Source: Oscillospiraceae bacterium | GTDB taxonomy: Bacteria; Bacillota; Clostridia; Oscillospirales; UBA929 | Length of the DNA stretch: 64,000 bases | Assembly: GCA_031254195.1 (NCBI GenBank) | Contig: JAIRUW010000044.1 | Coordinates: forward strand, 6,208-70,207 | Reading direction: 5' to 3' | Part shown: piece after piece, positions 52,951 to 64,000 of the stretch | How the letters are laid out: every line of letters starts with the position of its first letter | Numbering within the stretch: position 1 is the first letter of the stretch | Program-made: the position numbers and the translations under genes | Notes under the pieces: generated by a model | What the model was told of the DNA's origin: nothing | The model's database searches: none | Seen by the model: only the letters and a program-made list of their open reading frames with translations

Positions 52951-52964
52951 CAATCCTTACAATT

Positions 52965-53125
<161 letters not shown>

Positions 53126-53147
53126 AACGGCATAGAAGTATGCTTTC

Positions 53148-53185
53148 ACGCCCCCAAACTTATTGTTTGGGGGCGTTTATATATT
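53148..53185 (+). terminator. riboswitch expression-platform terminator
   Basis: ACGCCCCCAAAC (53148-53159) pairs with TTTGGGGGCGT (53166-53176). Followed by TTATATATT. Confidence 0.75.
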
Positions 53186-53209
53186 AAATTATATGAGGAG
53201 CTGATCACA

Positions 53210-53884
53210 TTGAAAACCCGTACGCATAAACTCGTTGTCCTCGCAATGATCGGAGCATTGGCCTATATCCTGATGTATTTCCTTCGCATTCCGGTCATGC
53301 CGGTGCCGCCTTATCTCAAGTATGACCCCAAAGACGTCGTCATCGTCATCGCCGGGTTCCTGTACGGCCCCTTGTCCGTGGTTGCCGTGTCCGCACTTGT
53401 CTCTGTTATCGAGATGTTTACAGTCAGTGAAACGGGCTATATCGGCTTTTTGATGAATGTCTTGGCGACATGCTCTTTTGCTTGCCCCGCCGCCGCCATA
53501 TACAAATGGAAGCGCACCTTATCAAGCGCGGTATATGGGCTTGCGATCGGCGCGCTGCTGGCAACCGGCGTCATGCTTTTATGGAATTATGTTATGACGC
53601 CCATTTATCTCGGCGTACCGCGCGCCGCTGTTGCGGCATCGCTGATTCCTGTTTTCCTGCCGTATAATCTGTTAAAGACAGGCCTCAACGCGAGCTTCGC
53701 CGTGCTCCTCTACAAGCCGGTGCGGTTAGCTCTCACACAGGCGCGTTTGATTCCTGTCCCGAGTATATCTCCTATCGGGGAGACTGAGCGCAAGGTAAGG
53801 TTTCATCCGGGACTGCTTGCCGTATCGGTTGTTGTGATAGTAACATGTGTTTTGTTGATATTGGCGTGGAATGGGAGGATTTAA
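53210..53884 (+). CDS. ribU: riboflavin ECF transporter S-component
   Basis: The TTG at 53210 lies 6 nt after GAGGAG. A multi-TM protein directly downstream of the FMN riboswitch. The longer ORF from 53123 would include riboswitch and terminator sequence. Confidence 0.8.
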   Translation: MKTRTHKLVVLAMIGALAYILMYFLRIPVMPVPPYLKYDPKDVVIVIAGFLYGPLSVVAVSALVSVIEMFTVSETGYIGFLMNVLATCSFACPAAAIYKWKRTLSSAVYGLAIGALLATGVMLLWNYVMTPIYLGVPRAAVAASLIPVFLPYNLLKTGLNASFAVLLYKPVRLALTQARLIPVPSISPIGETERKVRFHPGLLAVSVVVIVTCVLLILAWNGRI

Positions 53885-56860: not shown

Positions 56861-57465
56861 GCCGTTCCGTTTTAGAGTTCCTCCTCCCAAAACTCTGCGC
56901 GTTTTGCCGCCGCCCGGACCGGGACGGGCTGTGTGCGGACTGTCAGGGCAAGCTGCCGTGGCGGGCGCCGCCGGACGCGGGCGGGGTGATCGCGCCGCTG
57001 TATTACCGGGATATAGTGCGGTTCTCACTGCATAGATATAAGTTCCGGGGAGTTTCGGGGTACGCGGATGTGTTTGGGATGCTGATGGCACAGGCGGTAA
57101 GCGATTCGCGCGTGGAGGCGGAAGTTGCCACATGGGTGCCGTGCAGTTTTTTCCGCCGGTGGGCGCGCGGGTATGACCAGAGCGAAAGGCTGGCCCGTGC
57201 CGTGGCGAAGTATTTGGGGCTATCGGCTGATAAACTGCTCGCCAAACAACGCCATGCCAAATCGCAGACGAAGATGTCCGGCGATGAGATGCGTCGGGAA
57301 AATGTACGGGGCGCGTTTAAGGTGTTGCAAAACCCGGCGGGAAAGCGTATACTTTTGATTGACGACATCTACACCTCCGGCGCAACGCTGGACGAGTGCC
57401 GAAGCGTCCTCCTGTCCGCCGGGGCGGAAGAGGTCATTTGCTGCGCGGCCGCGTCACGCCGATAA
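56857..57465 (+). CDS. comFC: ComF family protein (phosphoribosyltransferase-type)
   Basis: N-terminal Cys pairs (CAFC...CADC) and a PRTase motif ILLIDDIYTSGATLDEC. Confidence 0.85.
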   Translation: MSRSVLEFLLPKLCAFCRRPDRDGLCADCQGKLPWRAPPDAGGVIAPLYYRDIVRFSLHRYKFRGVSGYADVFGMLMAQAVSDSRVEAEVATWVPCSFFRRWARGYDQSERLARAVAKYLGLSADKLLAKQRHAKSQTKMSGDEMRRENVRGAFKVLQNPAGKRILLIDDIYTSGATLDECRSVLLSAGAEEVICCAAASRR

Positions 57466-57485
57466 ATCAAAGGAGGATCATCCCT

Positions 57486-58682
57486 ATGAACAGCGCTTAT
57501 TCTCATAGAATGGGTTCCGGGGCCGTTCAAATCTTCGGACCAGACGGGCAGCCCGCAGTCAGCCGCGAGGTCACGGTCAAGCAAATAACGGGCGATGTTT
57601 TATTCGGCTGCGCCGGGTTTGAGACAGTGCAGCTTGTCAGCGGAGAATGGGAGGGCGAGGAGAAAGTTTGCGCCGGAATACGGGTTGAAAAGATGCTGGA
57701 TCTGTTCAACGCCATAACACTCCCGTTTTACTGGGGGCGGTTCGAGCCGGAACGCGGCAAACCGGACACAGCGCGGCTGATGAACGCCGCCAAATGGCTG
57801 CGCGAGCAAGGTTGCTCTGTCAAAGGCCACCCGCTTTGCTGGCACACGGTCACGGCCCCGTGGCTGTTGGATCTGTCCGACGAGGAAATTCTAGCGGTGC
57901 AGCTTGAGCGGATCAAGCGCGATGTGGTGGAGTTTGAGGGCGTCATCGACATGTGGGATGTCATCAATGAGGTCGTCATCATGCCGGTCTTCGACCGCTA
58001 TGACAACGGCATCACCCGTATCTGCAAACGGGAAGGGCGCGTCGGGCTGGTGAGAAAGGTATTCGCCGAGGCGAAAGCGGCCAACCCTAACGCGACCCTG
58101 CTGATCAACGACTTCAACATGAGCGAGGACTACAGCAATCTAATCGAGGAGCTGCTGGCGGCGGAGATCCCGATCAGCGCGATCGGGCTGCAATCGCATA
58201 TGCACCAAGGCTGCTGGAGCCGTGAAAAAACAGAGGAGGTCTTGGAACGATTTGAGCGTTTCGGCCTGCCCCTGCATTTCACCGAGATCAACCTGGTGTC
58301 CGGGGAGATCATGCCCAAGCACATCGTTGACCTCAACGACTTTGCGCCGGACGAGTGGCTGTCCACACCGGAGGGTGAGGCCAGGCAGGCGGAGGAGGTC
58401 GCGGCATTCTATTCGCTGCTGTTCCAATGCCCGCTGGTTGAGGCTGTCACATACTGGAGTTTTACAGACGGCGGCTGGCTCAATGCCCCGGCCGGGCTGA
58501 TGACAAAGGACGCGCGGGTGAAACCGGCGTATGACGCTCTATATCAGTTGATAAAGAACGAGTGGCGCACACCGAACCTTCGTGTTATCACCGATGAATA
58601 CGGCTATGCTGAGGTCAGCGGGTTCCGGGGCGGCTATGTCGCGGAATTTGACGGCGGGAGTATGGAGTTTTCCATCGGCTGA
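57486..58682 (+). CDS. glycoside hydrolase family 10-like protein (endo-1,4-beta-xylanase), no signal peptide
   Basis: SD AGGAGG. ...KGHPLCWH...MWDVINEV...LINDFN...GLQSHM...HFTEINL... matches the GH10 catalytic-Glu contexts (INE and TEI). Confidence 0.8.
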   Translation: MNSAYSHRMGSGAVQIFGPDGQPAVSREVTVKQITGDVLFGCAGFETVQLVSGEWEGEEKVCAGIRVEKMLDLFNAITLPFYWGRFEPERGKPDTARLMNAAKWLREQGCSVKGHPLCWHTVTAPWLLDLSDEEILAVQLERIKRDVVEFEGVIDMWDVINEVVIMPVFDRYDNGITRICKREGRVGLVRKVFAEAKAANPNATLLINDFNMSEDYSNLIEELLAAEIPISAIGLQSHMHQGCWSREKTEEVLERFERFGLPLHFTEINLVSGEIMPKHIVDLNDFAPDEWLSTPEGEARQAEEVAAFYSLLFQCPLVEAVTYWSFTDGGWLNAPAGLMTKDARVKPAYDALYQLIKNEWRTPNLRVITDEYGYAEVSGFRGGYVAEFDGGSMEFSIG

Positions 58683-61491: not shown

Positions 61492-62169
61492 ATGAACAGG
61501 ATGGATATTGTCAAGTCGTTGGAGTATTCAACGGCGGCTTACCGCGACATCCAGCCGTACACGCCTCACACCTGTACCGCTATGGTCGACAGCAAGCCGT
61601 CGGGGGTGCAGTATTTTCTGCGAAAGAACAAGGATACCCTCTGGATTACCTTCCGTGGGTCAGATTCACCGAGAGATTGGAAGACAAACTTCACTTTTTG
61701 GAAAAAAACCATCCCCTATGACAATACCGCGACAAAGATACGCGTACATACGGGATTCCTCAACGCGTATAAATCCCCTTCTGTCCGAGACCTGATTTTG
61801 GCGGAGGCCGCCCGGGATGTACGCACGATCAAGATTACCGGGCATTCGCTGGGCGCGGCGCTGGCCGTCCTTTGCGCCGTGGATGTGCAGTATAACCGCC
61901 CCGACGCGGACATCGAGGTCGTCCTGTTCGGCTGCCCCCGCGTCGGCAACAGAGCTTTCGCGCTGTCATACAACAAGCGCGTGGACAAGACGCTGCGGGT
62001 CGAGTATGGCAATGATGTCGTCACAAAAGTGCCTCCGGCGGCTTTCGGCTTCAGGCATGTAGGGGCCAAACTGCATATCGGCCCGCCGCGCCTTCCGCTG
62101 GTCGTCTGCGCAAACGACCATTACCCGCATCGGTATTACTCCGGGCTGCTGAAAAAAATCATCCTCTAG
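61492..62169 (+). CDS. class 3 lipase family protein
   Basis: ...LWITFRGSDSPRDWKTNF...VHTGFLNAY...ITGHSLGAALAVL (GHSLG nucleophile elbow). The ATG at 61492 follows GGGGGGTGG. Confidence 0.8.
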   Translation: MNRMDIVKSLEYSTAAYRDIQPYTPHTCTAMVDSKPSGVQYFLRKNKDTLWITFRGSDSPRDWKTNFTFWKKTIPYDNTATKIRVHTGFLNAYKSPSVRDLILAEAARDVRTIKITGHSLGAALAVLCAVDVQYNRPDADIEVVLFGCPRVGNRAFALSYNKRVDKTLRVEYGNDVVTKVPPAAFGFRHVGAKLHIGPPRLPLVVCANDHYPHRYYSGLLKKIIL

Positions 62170-62235
62170 CCCTTGCGTTTTCTTGGGCGGTCTGTTATAG
62201 TAGGCGGAAATACCTAAAAAGAAGGTGACCCCGCC

Positions 62236-63039
62236 ATGCAAGACGCCGTCCAAACCGTGCGCGATTTTTACAATCAAAATCCCGAAACAGAATACAACCG
62301 TATCGCAGGCCGTCCCGAGTTCATGCTGACTTGTCGGTATATCGACCGATACATTCAGCTCGGCGACACTGTTTTGGATATCGGCGGCGGGCCGGGGCGG
62401 TATGCGCTCTATCTCGCCCAAAAGGGCTGTGATGTTACATTAATCGACCTCTCCGAGGAGAACGCGGCTTTCGCCGCCTCACGGGCGCGGGACGAAAAGC
62501 TCCCTCTAAAAGCCATGCAGGGCGACGCGCGGGAGGCGGACAAGCTGTTGGGCGGTTTGTTCGACCATGTACTGCTGATGGGGCCGCTCTATCATCTGTT
62601 AGAGGAAGCCGACCGAATCAAAGCGGTCAGCGCGGCCTTGCGTCTGCTTAAACCGGGCGGGCTGCTGTTCACGTCGTTTATCAGCATGGGCGGCGGGCTG
62701 GTCTATTTGTTGCGGGAGATGCCGGAACTGGTCATTCACCCGGATGAGGAACGCTTCCTTATTCCGCTCATTGAAGGCAAAAGCTATGGCGGCGCCGCGT
62801 TCACACAGGCGTTTTTTATTAGCCAAAACGAAGTCCTGCCGTTTATGGCACGGTTTCCGCTGGAGAAACTGCATCTGTTTGGTCAGGAGAGCATCCTTGC
62901 CCCCAATGAACACAACGTCATGAAGCAGCCACCGGAGGTTATCGCGGCATGGCTCGACCTTGCGGAGAAAATGTGCGAACGGGAAGAGTATTTGAGCTGG
63001 TCGGAACACCTGATGTACATAGGACGAAAAACGCAATGA
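62236..63039 (+). CDS. class I SAM-dependent methyltransferase
   Basis: Motif I VLDIGGGPGRYALYLA, followed by DLSEEN and LLMGPLYHL. Confidence 0.8.
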   Translation: MQDAVQTVRDFYNQNPETEYNRIAGRPEFMLTCRYIDRYIQLGDTVLDIGGGPGRYALYLAQKGCDVTLIDLSEENAAFAASRARDEKLPLKAMQGDAREADKLLGGLFDHVLLMGPLYHLLEEADRIKAVSAALRLLKPGGLLFTSFISMGGGLVYLLREMPELVIHPDEERFLIPLIEGKSYGGAAFTQAFFISQNEVLPFMARFPLEKLHLFGQESILAPNEHNVMKQPPEVIAAWLDLAEKMCEREEYLSWSEHLMYIGRKTQ

Positions 63040-63629
63040 GACTGCGAAGGCGCAAAAATCAAACCGCCCGCATGGAGAAGGCCGCCGATTGGCTGATTTC
63101 TGAATGGCAGGGAAAAACGGACCGCCTACTTGTCGAATTGGGTTGCGGGATGGGACGTTTTGCCTGTGAAACGGCGGAGGCCAACCCCGATGTGACCGTG
63201 TTGGGGCTAGAGCGTGTCCCCGAGGCCATCTTGATTGGTATGGAATATGCCCAGCAAAAAGGGCTTTGTAATGTCCGTTTTATCCTCGGTGATGTGATTG
63301 AACTTGACAAAATGTTCGCACCGGGCGAGATCGACGAGCTTTATATCCACTTCTGCGACCCGTGGCCGCATTGGAAGCAAGCCCCCCGCCGCCTCGTGGC
63401 GCGGAATTTCCTCCGGCTCTACCGCCCGCTGCTCGCGCTAGGCGGAACATTGCGGTTCAAGACCGACAACGCGCCGCTGTTCGCGTTTGCGCAAAAGGAG
63501 CTTGCCGCCGAGGGCTGGACGGTAACGCATTGCGACCCCAACAGTCCGCCGGAGGCGGTGATGACCGATTATGAAGCAAAGTTCCGGGCGCGGGGGGTTG
63601 CGATCGGGGCCTTGACAGCGGCGCCATAA
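63036..63629 (+). CDS. trmB: tRNA (guanine-N7)-methyltransferase
   Basis: ATGA overlap with the upstream stop. LVELGCGMGRF...LYIHFCDPWPHWKQAPRRL...FKTDN...MTDYEAKF is the TrmB signature. Confidence 0.88.
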   Translation: MRLRRRKNQTARMEKAADWLISEWQGKTDRLLVELGCGMGRFACETAEANPDVTVLGLERVPEAILIGMEYAQQKGLCNVRFILGDVIELDKMFAPGEIDELYIHFCDPWPHWKQAPRRLVARNFLRLYRPLLALGGTLRFKTDNAPLFAFAQKELAAEGWTVTHCDPNSPPEAVMTDYEAKFRARGVAIGALTAAP

Positions 63630-63640
63630 TATGTTATTGT
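63612..63640 (+). promoter_or_regulatory. candidate promoter for the erm leader
   Basis: TTGACA (63612-63617), 17 nt, TATTGT (63635-63640). Lies in the last codons of trmB. Confidence 0.4.
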
Positions 63641-63671
63641 CAGTATGTTAAGCATCATAAAAAGGAAGGTC

Positions 63672-63707
63672 ATGCACCTCATGGGTACAATTCGGATTCG
63701 CAAATAA
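63672..63707 (+). CDS. 11-codon leader peptide ORF (MHLMGTIRIRK)
   Basis: SD AAGGAAGG lies 3 nt upstream of the ATG at 63672 (12 nt upstream of the in-frame ATG at 63681). The stop TAA at 63705-63707 is 1 nt before the terminator's 5' arm. Contains an R-I-R (+x+) motif. Confidence 0.5.
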   Translation: MHLMGTIRIRK

Positions 63708-63708
63708 A

Positions 63709-63754
63709 GCGTACTGAACAGCTAACCGATAGCTTTTTTCAGTACGCCTTTTTA
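63709..63754 (+). terminator. attenuator terminator hairpin between the leader ORF and the erm-like gene
   Basis: GCGTACTGAA (63709-63718) pairs with TTCAGTACGC (63738-63747). Inner pairing AGCT/AGCT. Followed by CTTTTTA. Confidence 0.6.
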
Positions 63755-63785
63755 TGTCCGAATTTGTGCATAGGGGTGTATTTTT

Positions 63786-64000
63786 GTGTCTAAATACAGT
63801 ATTTCGCAAAATTTCCTGACGAGTTCCGTTACCATCAAAAGACTGCTGCGCCTGACCTCCATCAGCGCGGACGACCATGTCGTTGAAATAGGTGCGGGCA
63901 AAGGGCATATCACAAGGGAGCTTCTCAAAATCTGCGGCTCGGTCAGCGCCTACGAAATCGATCGCAAGCTGTGCGGGCGGCTGCGGGACAAGCTGGGCGA
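63786..64000 (+). CDS. Erm-family 23S rRNA (adenine-N6)-methyltransferase, 5' partial (runs off the window)
   Basis: GTG at 63786 after AGGGGTG. My translation is VSKYSISQNFLTSSVTIKRLLRLTSISADDHVVEIGAGKGHITRELLKICGSVSAYEIDRKLCGRLRDKLG. YSQNFLTS and EIGxGKGHxT are Erm-like rather than KsgA-like (GxGxLT). Not in the ORF track because there is no stop in the window. Confidence 0.75.
   Translation, partial: MSKYSISQNFLTSSVTIKRLLRLTSISADDHVVEIGAGKGHITRELLKICGSVSAYEIDRKLCGRLRDKLG

Follow-up and report, generated by a model that had tools for sequence, protein, structure and literature searches.

The principles by which short leader peptides govern macrolide resistance genes are established: Erm enzymes, leaders with the Arg-Leu-Arg (RLR) motif, transcriptional and translational attenuation, and direct terminator occlusion are all known, with direct terminator occlusion documented for msrDL and a chromosomal inducible erm for ermD/ermK. 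Macrolide-resistance leader peptides bear RLR as a signature (PMC6310831). In arrest at such +x+ motifs, x occupies the P site of the ribosome and Arg the A site, and ErmDL halts with Leu7 in the P site and Arg8 not added (PMC8298421), while residues upstream of RLR can abolish arrest (PMC12583479). According to Kwak 1991, as cited in PMC5418344, ermK is controlled at an intrinsic terminator, and in the case of msrDL the direct obstacle to a Rho-independent terminator is the ribosome itself, stalled on a leader of 6 codons, with no antiterminator (bioRxiv 10.1101/2021.11.29.470318). Here we describe a leader and the 5' part of an erm-like gene found at the end of a 64,000-nucleotide stretch of DNA (referred to here as the window; contig JAIRUW010000044.1, positions 6,208 to 70,207) from an Oscillospiraceae bacterium. 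We consider it probable that this is a stand-alone chromosomal erm gene of an unnamed class, with its own promoter and with a combined transcriptional and translational attenuator built around a +x+ (ErmDL-type) arrest peptide.

An erm-family gene outside the named classes

The elements of the leader and gene in the window are as follows.

63662-63669, + strand: leader Shine-Dalgarno (SD) sequence AAGGAAGG, recognized by sequence and unpaired in the predicted fold
63672-63707, + strand: leader open reading frame (ORF) MHLMGTIRIRK-stop, with ATG at 63672 and TAA at 63705-63707
63672-63680, + strand: 5' strand of helix P1, the anti-SD segment AUGCACCUC, pairing with the erm SD region
63685-63697, + strand: 5' strand of helix P2, GUACAAUUCGGAU, spanning leader codons G-T-I-R-I
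63693-63701, + strand: Arg8-Ile9-Arg10 codons CGG AUU CGC, the +x+ motif; predicted stall with the P site on Ile9 (63696-63698) and the A site on Arg10
63709-63754, + strand: intrinsic-terminator-like hairpin (P3) and CUUUUUA, comprising a 10-bp outer and a 5-bp inner stem (63709-63747) and a U-tract (63748-63754)
63756-63769, + strand: 3' strand of helix P2, GUCCGAAUUUGUGC, in the spacer after the terminator and complementary to the I-R-I codons
63772-63781, + strand: erm SD AGGGGUG (63772-63778) plus 3 nt, GAGGTGTATTTTT-start being near-invariant in the family
63773-63781, + strand: 3' strand of helix P1, GGGGUGUAU, including the erm SD
63786-64000, + strand: erm-family rRNA adenine N6-methyltransferase gene, 5' part (71 codons), GTG start, assigned by Pfam and NCBIfam

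The leader ORF, the hairpin, the erm SD with its GTG start, the motifs YSISQNFLTS and EIGAGKGHIT, and a promoter (see below) had been marked in an initial annotation of the window, and all of them were recovered at the same positions. The erm ORF runs off the end of the window after 71 codons and contains both motifs, which are invariant in its relatives. Residues 3 to 70 of the fragment matched the Pfam family RrnaAD (PF00398) with 65 bits, and the window ORF combines the RrnaAD fold with SQNF(L/I)T and the S-adenosylmethionine (SAM)-binding motif E-I-G-x-G-K-G-H-x-T, the combination by which an Erm was recognized here. Among the NCBIfam models the fragment was best matched by Erm23S_rRNA_broad (77.8 bits, 64 of 244 model positions), compared with 59.5 bits for ksgA. 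Eight full-length relatives, which are 50 to 78% identical to the window fragment over its length, scored 201 to 249 bits on the Erm model and 113 to 130 bits on ksgA (cut-offs, 212 and 171 bits, respectively). Five of the eight lie at or above the Erm cut-off and three slightly under it (201, 207, and 211.3), and their alignments cover model positions 2 to 244, including the C-terminal domain. Compared with solved structures, the full-length relatives were best matched by ErmC' (129 bits, 1e-36), followed by Erm(38), ErmE, and ErmB (about 1e-28), with KsgA/Dim1 structures reaching 64 bits and 1e-16 at best. The fragment, the full-length relatives, and the structures agree with the initial annotation in placing the gene with Erm rather than with KsgA. 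The assignment of the window gene itself follows from its first 71 residues and from its synteny with two related loci, L084 and L085, which share the gene order methyltransferase-trmB-leader-erm.

By nomenclature convention, members of one erm class share at least 80% amino acid identity with the class prototype. The named-class hidden Markov models (HMMs) gave at best 136 to 157 bits against cut-offs of 475 to 600 bits, so that no class was reached, and the nearest plasmid-borne gene was erm(Q), with 43.8% identity over 92% of a full-length relative. No named class thus fits among the class HMMs and plasmid-borne genes compared, with ErmD/K and Erm(34), which have no HMM, outside the comparison. 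More than 1,000 database proteins match one full-length relative at an E value of 1e-20 or less, and several of these carry the NCBI name "23S ribosomal RNA methyltransferase Erm", which is generic only. By sequence, the family is Erm-like rather than KsgA-like and lies outside every named class compared; in the comparison with erm classes, then, the Erm-like character given in the initial annotation stood and a named class was not reached. Erm enzymes are 23S rRNA A2058 N6-methyltransferases, and the window gene would be expected to methylate A2058 and to confer resistance.

One genome per GTDB species and the JGI metagenomes were scanned, in which the nearest relatives showed at most 78% identity and the remainder of the window gene was not recovered; a word-indexed protein search with the 71-residue fragment returned two fragments only. 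At 53% identity or more, the scans yielded about 50 loci in genomes and about 35 in metagenomes, encoding proteins of 246 to 276 residues in Oscillospiraceae, Christensenellaceae, and other Clostridia. Many of these relatives come from metagenome-assembled genomes, with isolate names reminiscent of termite-gut, rumen, and gut studies.

A conserved R-x-R leader peptide

The leader-hairpin-erm arrangement was found upstream of about 75 of the 86 related genes. The leader ORF of 66 distinct loci has 6 to 11 codons, mostly 8 or 9, and ends in I-R-I/L-R-(K)-stop. The residue before the first Arg is I in 47 loci; the first Arg is present in 65 (CGT 22, CGG 22, CGC 15, AGG 4, AGA 1, and CGA 1), the middle residue x is I in 52 and L in 9, and the second Arg is present in all 66 (CGC 36, CGT 23, AGG 3, CGG 2, CGA 1, and AGA 1). 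The second Arg is followed by the stop codon in 32 loci, by Lys in 27, and by another residue in 7, and the stop is TAA in 57 of the 66. What was taken to mark a leader, a short SD-bearing ORF upstream of the gene with R-x-R kept under synonymous codon turnover, is hence present in 65 of the 66 distinct relatives. Because Arg survives CGN-to-AGR switches, with the start, the frame, and the stop kept, the leader is probably translated and selected at the level of its peptide. Short ORFs ending in [hydrophobic]-R-[hydrophobic]-R-(x)-stop occur only once in the 64 kb, besides a trivial opposite-strand match at the window edge. The I-R-I-R of the leader is predicted to be an ErmDL-type +x+ macrolide/ketolide arrest motif, on which the ribosome would halt in the presence of the drug. 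The initial annotation had let its reading depend on whether relatives with the gene also keep the leader, which the 66 distinct loci ending in I-R-I/L-R-(K) confirm, and the likeness to ErmDL that it saw is borne out by R8-I9-R10 of the window (PMC8298421).

Most relatives share a start equivalent to the second in-frame ATG of the window leader, at 63681 (MGTIRIRK), and the MHLM... start is found in a few lineages; such an extra in-frame ATG, nearer to the leader SD, occurs in a few lineages including that of the window. In many relatives (L010, L014, L019, L020, L022, and others) the leader SD is 12 to 16 nt from the shared ATG, and in others 7 to 8 nt; the long distance arises because the anti-SD segment sits between the two. 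A longer in-frame ORF from an ATG at 63645 (MLSIIKRKVMHLMGTIRIRK) was rejected as the leader, as its ATG about coincides with the inferred start of transcription and relatives have nothing equivalent.

A terminator-like hairpin at a near-constant distance from the predicted stall site

In the outer stem of the hairpin, GCGUACUGAA (63709-63718) pairs with UUCAGUACGC (63738-63747). The hairpin begins 1 nt past the leader stop codon in the window and 0 to 5 nt past it in the architecture proposed for the family. A terminator scan tool does not call it, solely because the loop exceeds the 8-nt limit of the tool. The 154-nt leader region folds with a z score of -5.9 (200 dinucleotide shuffles). When 60 leader regions aligned with MAFFT were analyzed with RNAalifold, the terminator stem was the only structure recovered; all 7 of its basal pairs showed compensatory changes, and in a 20-sequence alignment double changes were found in 13 of 14 stem pairs. 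The stem had a covariation score of 0.495; shuffles gave 0.251 (none of 500 reached the stem's score), and sliding the partners gave no more than 0.173. At least 5 U within the 9 nt after the stem were found in 57 of 65 loci, and a run of at least 4 U in 46 loci. The hairpin with its U-tract, as described in the initial annotation, is accordingly conserved with compensatory changes. In Rfam searches of the leader region, only sub-threshold chance matches to the hairpin were obtained (MAT2A_C with 32.4 bits against a gathering threshold of 47, and miRNA models).

Counted from the first base of the codon predicted to occupy the P site, the stem has its first G:C pair at 9 to 15 nt (mean, 12.25; standard deviation, 1.44), and at 12 or 13 nt in 43 of 65 loci. 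The spacer after the stop codon measures 2.5 nt in leaders that stop after the second Arg and 0.9 nt in those with an extra codon (Mann-Whitney p = 5e-5); because spacer length compensates for the extra codon, the stem keeps a tighter distance from the stall site than from the stop codon. Counted from the P site, a ribosome covers its mRNA as far as about +12 to +15. Halted at R-I-R, it would therefore end flush with the base of the hairpin and overlie the A-rich K-stop tract, a tract that can also pair with the U-tract. The initial annotation had the stalled ribosome cover the 5' arm of the terminator; since the stem begins at +13 in the window and 12 ± 1.4 nt from the P site in the family, it would abut the base of the stem instead.

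A search for an antiterminator pairing with the terminator 5' arm gave only weak, unconserved pairings, and between the leader stop and the stem there is no room for one. The minimum free energy of the nascent RNA is -13.1 kcal/mol versus -21.8 kcal/mol for the hairpin, which argues against a strong upstream competitor for the 5' arm without rigorously excluding one. With this same reservation, the locus shows the msrDL-type architecture, in which a terminator lies between the leader and the gene, within reach of a stalled ribosome and with no strong competitor upstream.

Two predicted long-range helices between the leader and the erm ribosome-binding site region

The fold predicted for the leader of the window is a single nested rod, with P1 outside, P2 within, and the hairpin P3 at the tip, and the same nesting is predicted in relatives. 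In P1, the partner of the erm SD is the anti-SD UACACCUC of the leader start. P1 and P2 were evaluated with alignment-free duplexes, in which a strand was compared with its own partner and with the partners of other loci. Cognate P1 duplexes had -12.9 kcal/mol and non-cognate ones -11.2 kcal/mol (0 of 10,000 permutations as good). P1 was also recovered by RNAalifold in a 20-sequence subset, with 8 pairs and 92.5% of cells paired, mostly with G-U variation; outside the SD core it covaries (UA/UA, CA/UG, AA/UU, and GC/GC).

P2 forms a 13-bp duplex of -16.1 kcal/mol in the window, and across the family leaders paired with their own spacers at -10.4 kcal/mol versus -6.5 kcal/mol with the spacers of other loci (0 of 10,000 permutations). 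At the synonymous third position of the first Arg codon, the base and its P2 partner correspond (G-C in 19 loci, U-A in 11, C-G in 9, and G-U or U-G in 7). The leader nucleotides are thus doubly constrained, by the peptide and by the helix. P2 was absent from the RNAalifold output for the 60 leaders and for the 20-sequence subset, in the latter because the spacer was misaligned, and a column-wise search for P2 in the MAFFT alignment was uninformative in this AT-rich sequence. Mutually exclusive hairpins of the ermC type were sought, and no conserved alternative pairing was found; the predicted, covarying structure is nested, 1:4 around 2:3. When the stall footprint was masked, the energy required to open the erm ribosome-binding site of the window fell from 17.6 to 7.8 kcal/mol, in a model that includes neither ribosome sterics nor kinetics.

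Proposed mechanism and alternatives

From the parts of the locus and their conservation, covariation, and spacing, we infer drug-dependent arrest, read-through, opening of the ribosome-binding site, A2058 methylation, and resistance, as follows. Without drug, the ribosome would complete the leader and depart, and the terminator would end most transcripts; in RNA that is read through, P1 and P2 would close and hide the erm ribosome-binding site. With a macrolide bound in the tunnel, the ribosome would arrest at the motif, Ile occupying the P site and Arg the A site. The front of the ribosome, standing against the first G:C pair and over the A-rich K-stop codons, would hinder completion of the hairpin at RNA polymerase and so permit read-through. 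The arrested ribosome would at the same time hold the 5' strand of P2, leaving the weaker P1 alone to guard the erm SD, which would then open more easily and allow the methylase to be made.

Several observations weigh against this dual attenuator or against its attribution to a functional erm gene. In an equilibrium model in which positions -15 to +13 around the P site were masked, P1 still forms, and the probability that the SD is unpaired is 0.07 in the free and 0.08 in the stalled state; averaged over the family, the opening energy falls from 16.6 to 13.7 kcal/mol, a drop of only 2.9 kcal/mol. Because P1 persists and this drop is modest, we do not claim release of the ribosome-binding site as demonstrated. 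The stalled ribosome would reach only 0 to 3 bp of the stem, and a normally terminating ribosome would reach deeper into it (6 to 11 nt from the last sense codon), so that the off state depends on fast release and the on/off logic on kinetics. A +x+ motif alone is insufficient for arrest (PMC12583479). The leader was not present in about 10 of the 86 relatives (L006, L008, L033, L036, L098, L106 to L108, L110, and L117), and the locus counts are those of phylogenetically related loci and thus do not represent independent events. As to the gene, only 71 of its codons lie in the window and its full length was not retrievable, the exact TrmB product having no database record; three of the eight full-length relatives are slightly under the NCBIfam Erm cut-off, and the closest syntenic relative, L084, has a scrambled C terminus.

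It is possible, and in our view unlikely, that control is translational only, the stalled ribosome melting P2 and freeing the erm ribosome-binding site while the hairpin acts as a clamp or as an RNA-stability element. P1 and P2 are found in essentially all leader-bearing loci, the U-tract is poor in 8 of 65 loci, a ribosome stalled at R-x-R does not cover the hairpin, and ErmBL, ErmCL, and ErmDL are described as cases of translational attenuation (bioRxiv 10.1101/2021.11.29.470318). However, 57 of 65 loci retain a GC-rich stem with 5 or more U among the next 9 nt, the gain in opening of the ribosome-binding site modeled across the family is small, and a mere clamp would have no need of a stall-to-stem distance kept at about 12 to 13 nt by a compensating spacer. 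The reverse case, pure transcription attenuation by terminator occlusion with an incidental complementarity to the erm SD, would agree with the terminator features, the stall-site geometry, and the msrDL precedent. We regard it as improbable, given that P1 and P2 covary with their own partners, that the anti-SD is kept although the sequence holding it, ahead of the family-typical start, is mostly non-coding, and that the wobble base of the first Arg codon has a compensating partner downstream. The compact transcription attenuation of the initial annotation is therefore upheld as far as the conserved terminator and the stall spacing go; it had missed the pairing of P1 and P2, the most extensive conserved structure of the locus, and the design is not purely transcriptional, because through these helices the erm ribosome-binding site region pairs with the start of the leader and with its I-R-I codons.

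Two further explanations concern the gene product and the small ORF. The Erm-like protein could be a housekeeping methyltransferase of rRNA or other RNA without a role in macrolide resistance, with a leader that senses translation stress or the supply of Arg-tRNA. The relatives under the Erm equivalog cut-off (3 of 8), the absence of a named class closer than 44%, and the location of the genes among housekeeping genes are compatible with such a role, which is nevertheless likewise improbable: the relatives are far nearer to Erm than to KsgA and match the whole Erm model including the C-terminal domain, the leader has just two Arg codons split by Ile instead of the codon runs of amino acid attenuators, and R-x-R equals the known drug-arrest motif. 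That the small ORF is untranslated and conserved through RNA structure alone, as might be suggested by the fact that its nucleotides are the 5' strand of a conserved helix and by the long SD-to-start spacing (12 to 13 nt) in many relatives, is hard to credit, since Arg persists where its codon has switched from CGN to AGR, since the second Arg codon is often in an internal loop, and since the start, the frame, and the stop (TAA in 57 of 66) are kept despite a length range of 6 to 11 codons, with an SD upstream. We therefore favor the combined transcriptional and translational attenuator, sensed through the R-x-R peptide, as the explanation for this locus.

Genomic context

Two further features of the window precede the leader.

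63036-63629, + strand: trmB, encoding a tRNA m7G46 methyltransferase (TIGR00091, 116.8 bits, cut-off 112.65; Pfam Methyltransf_4)
63612-63640, + strand: sigma-70-type promoter TTGACA-17 nt-TG-n-TATTGT (-35 at 63612-63617, -10 at 63635-63640)

The promoter-like site was the only one in a scan of positions 62000 to 64000, where 1.1 would be expected by chance, and it has no significance on its own because one site per 2 kb is the chance level. Promoter-like sites were found at a similar distance in 55 of the 66 related loci, the -10 hexamer lying 37 nt (median) ahead of the leader. Transcription would start near 63647. The start of trmB overlaps the stop of the preceding SAM-methyltransferase gene (ATGA at 63036-63039), which suggests translational coupling within one operon; the promoter of the erm leader is separate and lies downstream of this methyltransferase-trmB operon.

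The 16 kb upstream encode UvrA, RecD2, an energy-coupling factor (ECF) transporter S component, a GH10 xylanase, a pyridoxal phosphate (PLP) enzyme, hydrolases, ThuA, a lipase, the methyltransferase, and TrmB. No transposase, integrase, or other mobile-element gene was found in these approximately 16 kb of the window, and the three relatives on long contigs lie in three different housekeeping contexts with no mobile-element genes around them. A mobile-element context was rejected on these grounds, in keeping with the non-mobile chromosomal setting among housekeeping genes given in the initial annotation.

Elsewhere in the window, the only Rfam match to reach threshold was a flavin mononucleotide (FMN) riboswitch (RF00050, 102.6 bits) at 52964-53128 (+ strand), directly upstream of ORF 53123-53884. 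This ORF encodes the ECF transporter S component (Pfam ECF_trnsprt), probably a RibU-type riboflavin transporter. The GH10 xylanase is encoded at 57396-58682, and the nearest relatives (among them L004, L008, L010, L011, and L038) belong to metagenomes and metagenome-assembled genomes with names like those of termite-gut studies; the source is therefore probably a fiber-degrading gut member of the Clostridia.

Distribution and implications

The family may represent, with about even odds in our estimation, an undescribed chromosomal erm class of uncultured gut, rumen, and termite-gut Clostridia (Oscillospiraceae and Christensenellales) and of Clostridium thermosuccinogenes, controlled by a minimal "single-rod" dual attenuator in which the leader is at once drug sensor, sequestering strand, and spacer, with no alternative hairpin. 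Full-text literature searches found no account of this erm family or its leader. C. thermosuccinogenes (also Pseudoclostridium; L164, assembly GCA_002896995.1), one of the three relatives on long contigs, is a culturable carrier, with the leader MYGIFRIRK and the same nested rod.

Relatives that have no leader also have no rod, and some of them (L033) retain the GAGGTGTATTTTT-ATG ribosome-binding site; they may be constitutive or differently regulated variants. In L084 (1904-2641), the last approximately 65 residues of the Erm-like ORF are Arg/Pro/Ala-rich nonsense, likely the result of a frameshift (assembly error or pseudogene). In L001 (9880-10654), on a low-coverage ENA contig, the leader-hairpin-erm unit lies between groEL and lon; its gene is split into calls of 57 and 169 residues and its leader is shifted by one missing A, which resembles sequencing indels.

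If functional, the gene would be an intrinsic inducible determinant of macrolide-lincosamide-streptogramin B (MLS-B) resistance, of a class outside the named erm catalogue and carried by many Clostridia, commensal as well as environmental. It would go unnoticed in resistome surveys or receive a generic label there, and its inducibility would mask it in phenotypic tests. The approximately 66 natural variants of a very short +x+ peptide (hydrophobic-I-R-I/L-R) are a comparative set on the sequence context required for efficient arrest, and the tight spacing of 12 to 13 nt between stall site and terminator offers a compact system for testing interference between ribosome and RNA polymerase at a terminator.

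Comparison with known attenuators and erm classes

Among the named classes, Erm(Q) of Clostridium perfringens is the nearest plasmid-borne one and yet is far under 80% identity, and Erm(G), which is 50% identical over the 70 N-terminal residues of the window gene, is likewise far under it. The region upstream of erm(Q) has no R-x-R leader, and erm(G) loci have a leader of the IFVI type (L047). On the C. perfringens erm(Q) plasmid NZ_CP102307.1 (L163), a 9-codon ORF, MKKFKNIFV (454-483), precedes erm(Q) and an hflX gene (1510-1914) follows it; the peptide ends in I-F-V, reminiscent of the IFVI leader class, and the hflX gene is possibly of the resistance type HflXr.

Combined transcriptional and translational control has precedents: ermK is described in this way, and VmlR is reportedly under such control, going by the title of a 2022 paper that the msrD preprint cites (Takada et al. 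2022). The rli80 leader of Listeria hflXr (lmo0762) is similar to that of the window in that a small RLR ORF precedes a resistance gene controlled at an intrinsic terminator (PMC6310831); it differs in its 14-codon ORF, in its anti-antiterminator, antiterminator, and terminator, and in the resistance gene. The msrDL-msrD leader of the streptococcal mef/msr operon shares with the window family a very short leader and the direct obstruction of the terminator that we propose here. In contrast to the +x+ elongation-arrest type and the erm gene of the window family, MsrDL (MYLIFM) blocks release factors, so that its ribosome stalls on the stop codon, and it regulates an ABC-F gene, and the window family has in addition a helix that sequesters the ribosome-binding site.

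The ermC and ermB genes are alike in that a leader-stalled ribosome exposes the erm ribosome-binding site (PMC5418344). Their tandem hairpins re-pair (1:2 + 3:4 to 2:3) around peptides of the IFVI or ErmBL type, whereas the rod of the window family is nested, 1:4 around 2:3; the window attenuator could work as the ermC type does, by freeing the ribosome-binding site, though it is built otherwise. There is a likeness, too, to erm(D)/erm(K) of Bacillus, a chromosomal inducible erm with a short Arg-x-Arg leader (Arg6-Leu7-Arg8 in ErmDL/ErmKL; PMC8298421), and the relatives L004, L104, and L111 even carry M-R-L-R. Unlike erm(D)/erm(K), the window family places I-R-I-R at the extreme C terminus of an ORF of 6 to 11 codons, immediately followed by (K)-stop and the hairpin, and has one nested rod in place of alternative antiterminator and terminator hairpins.

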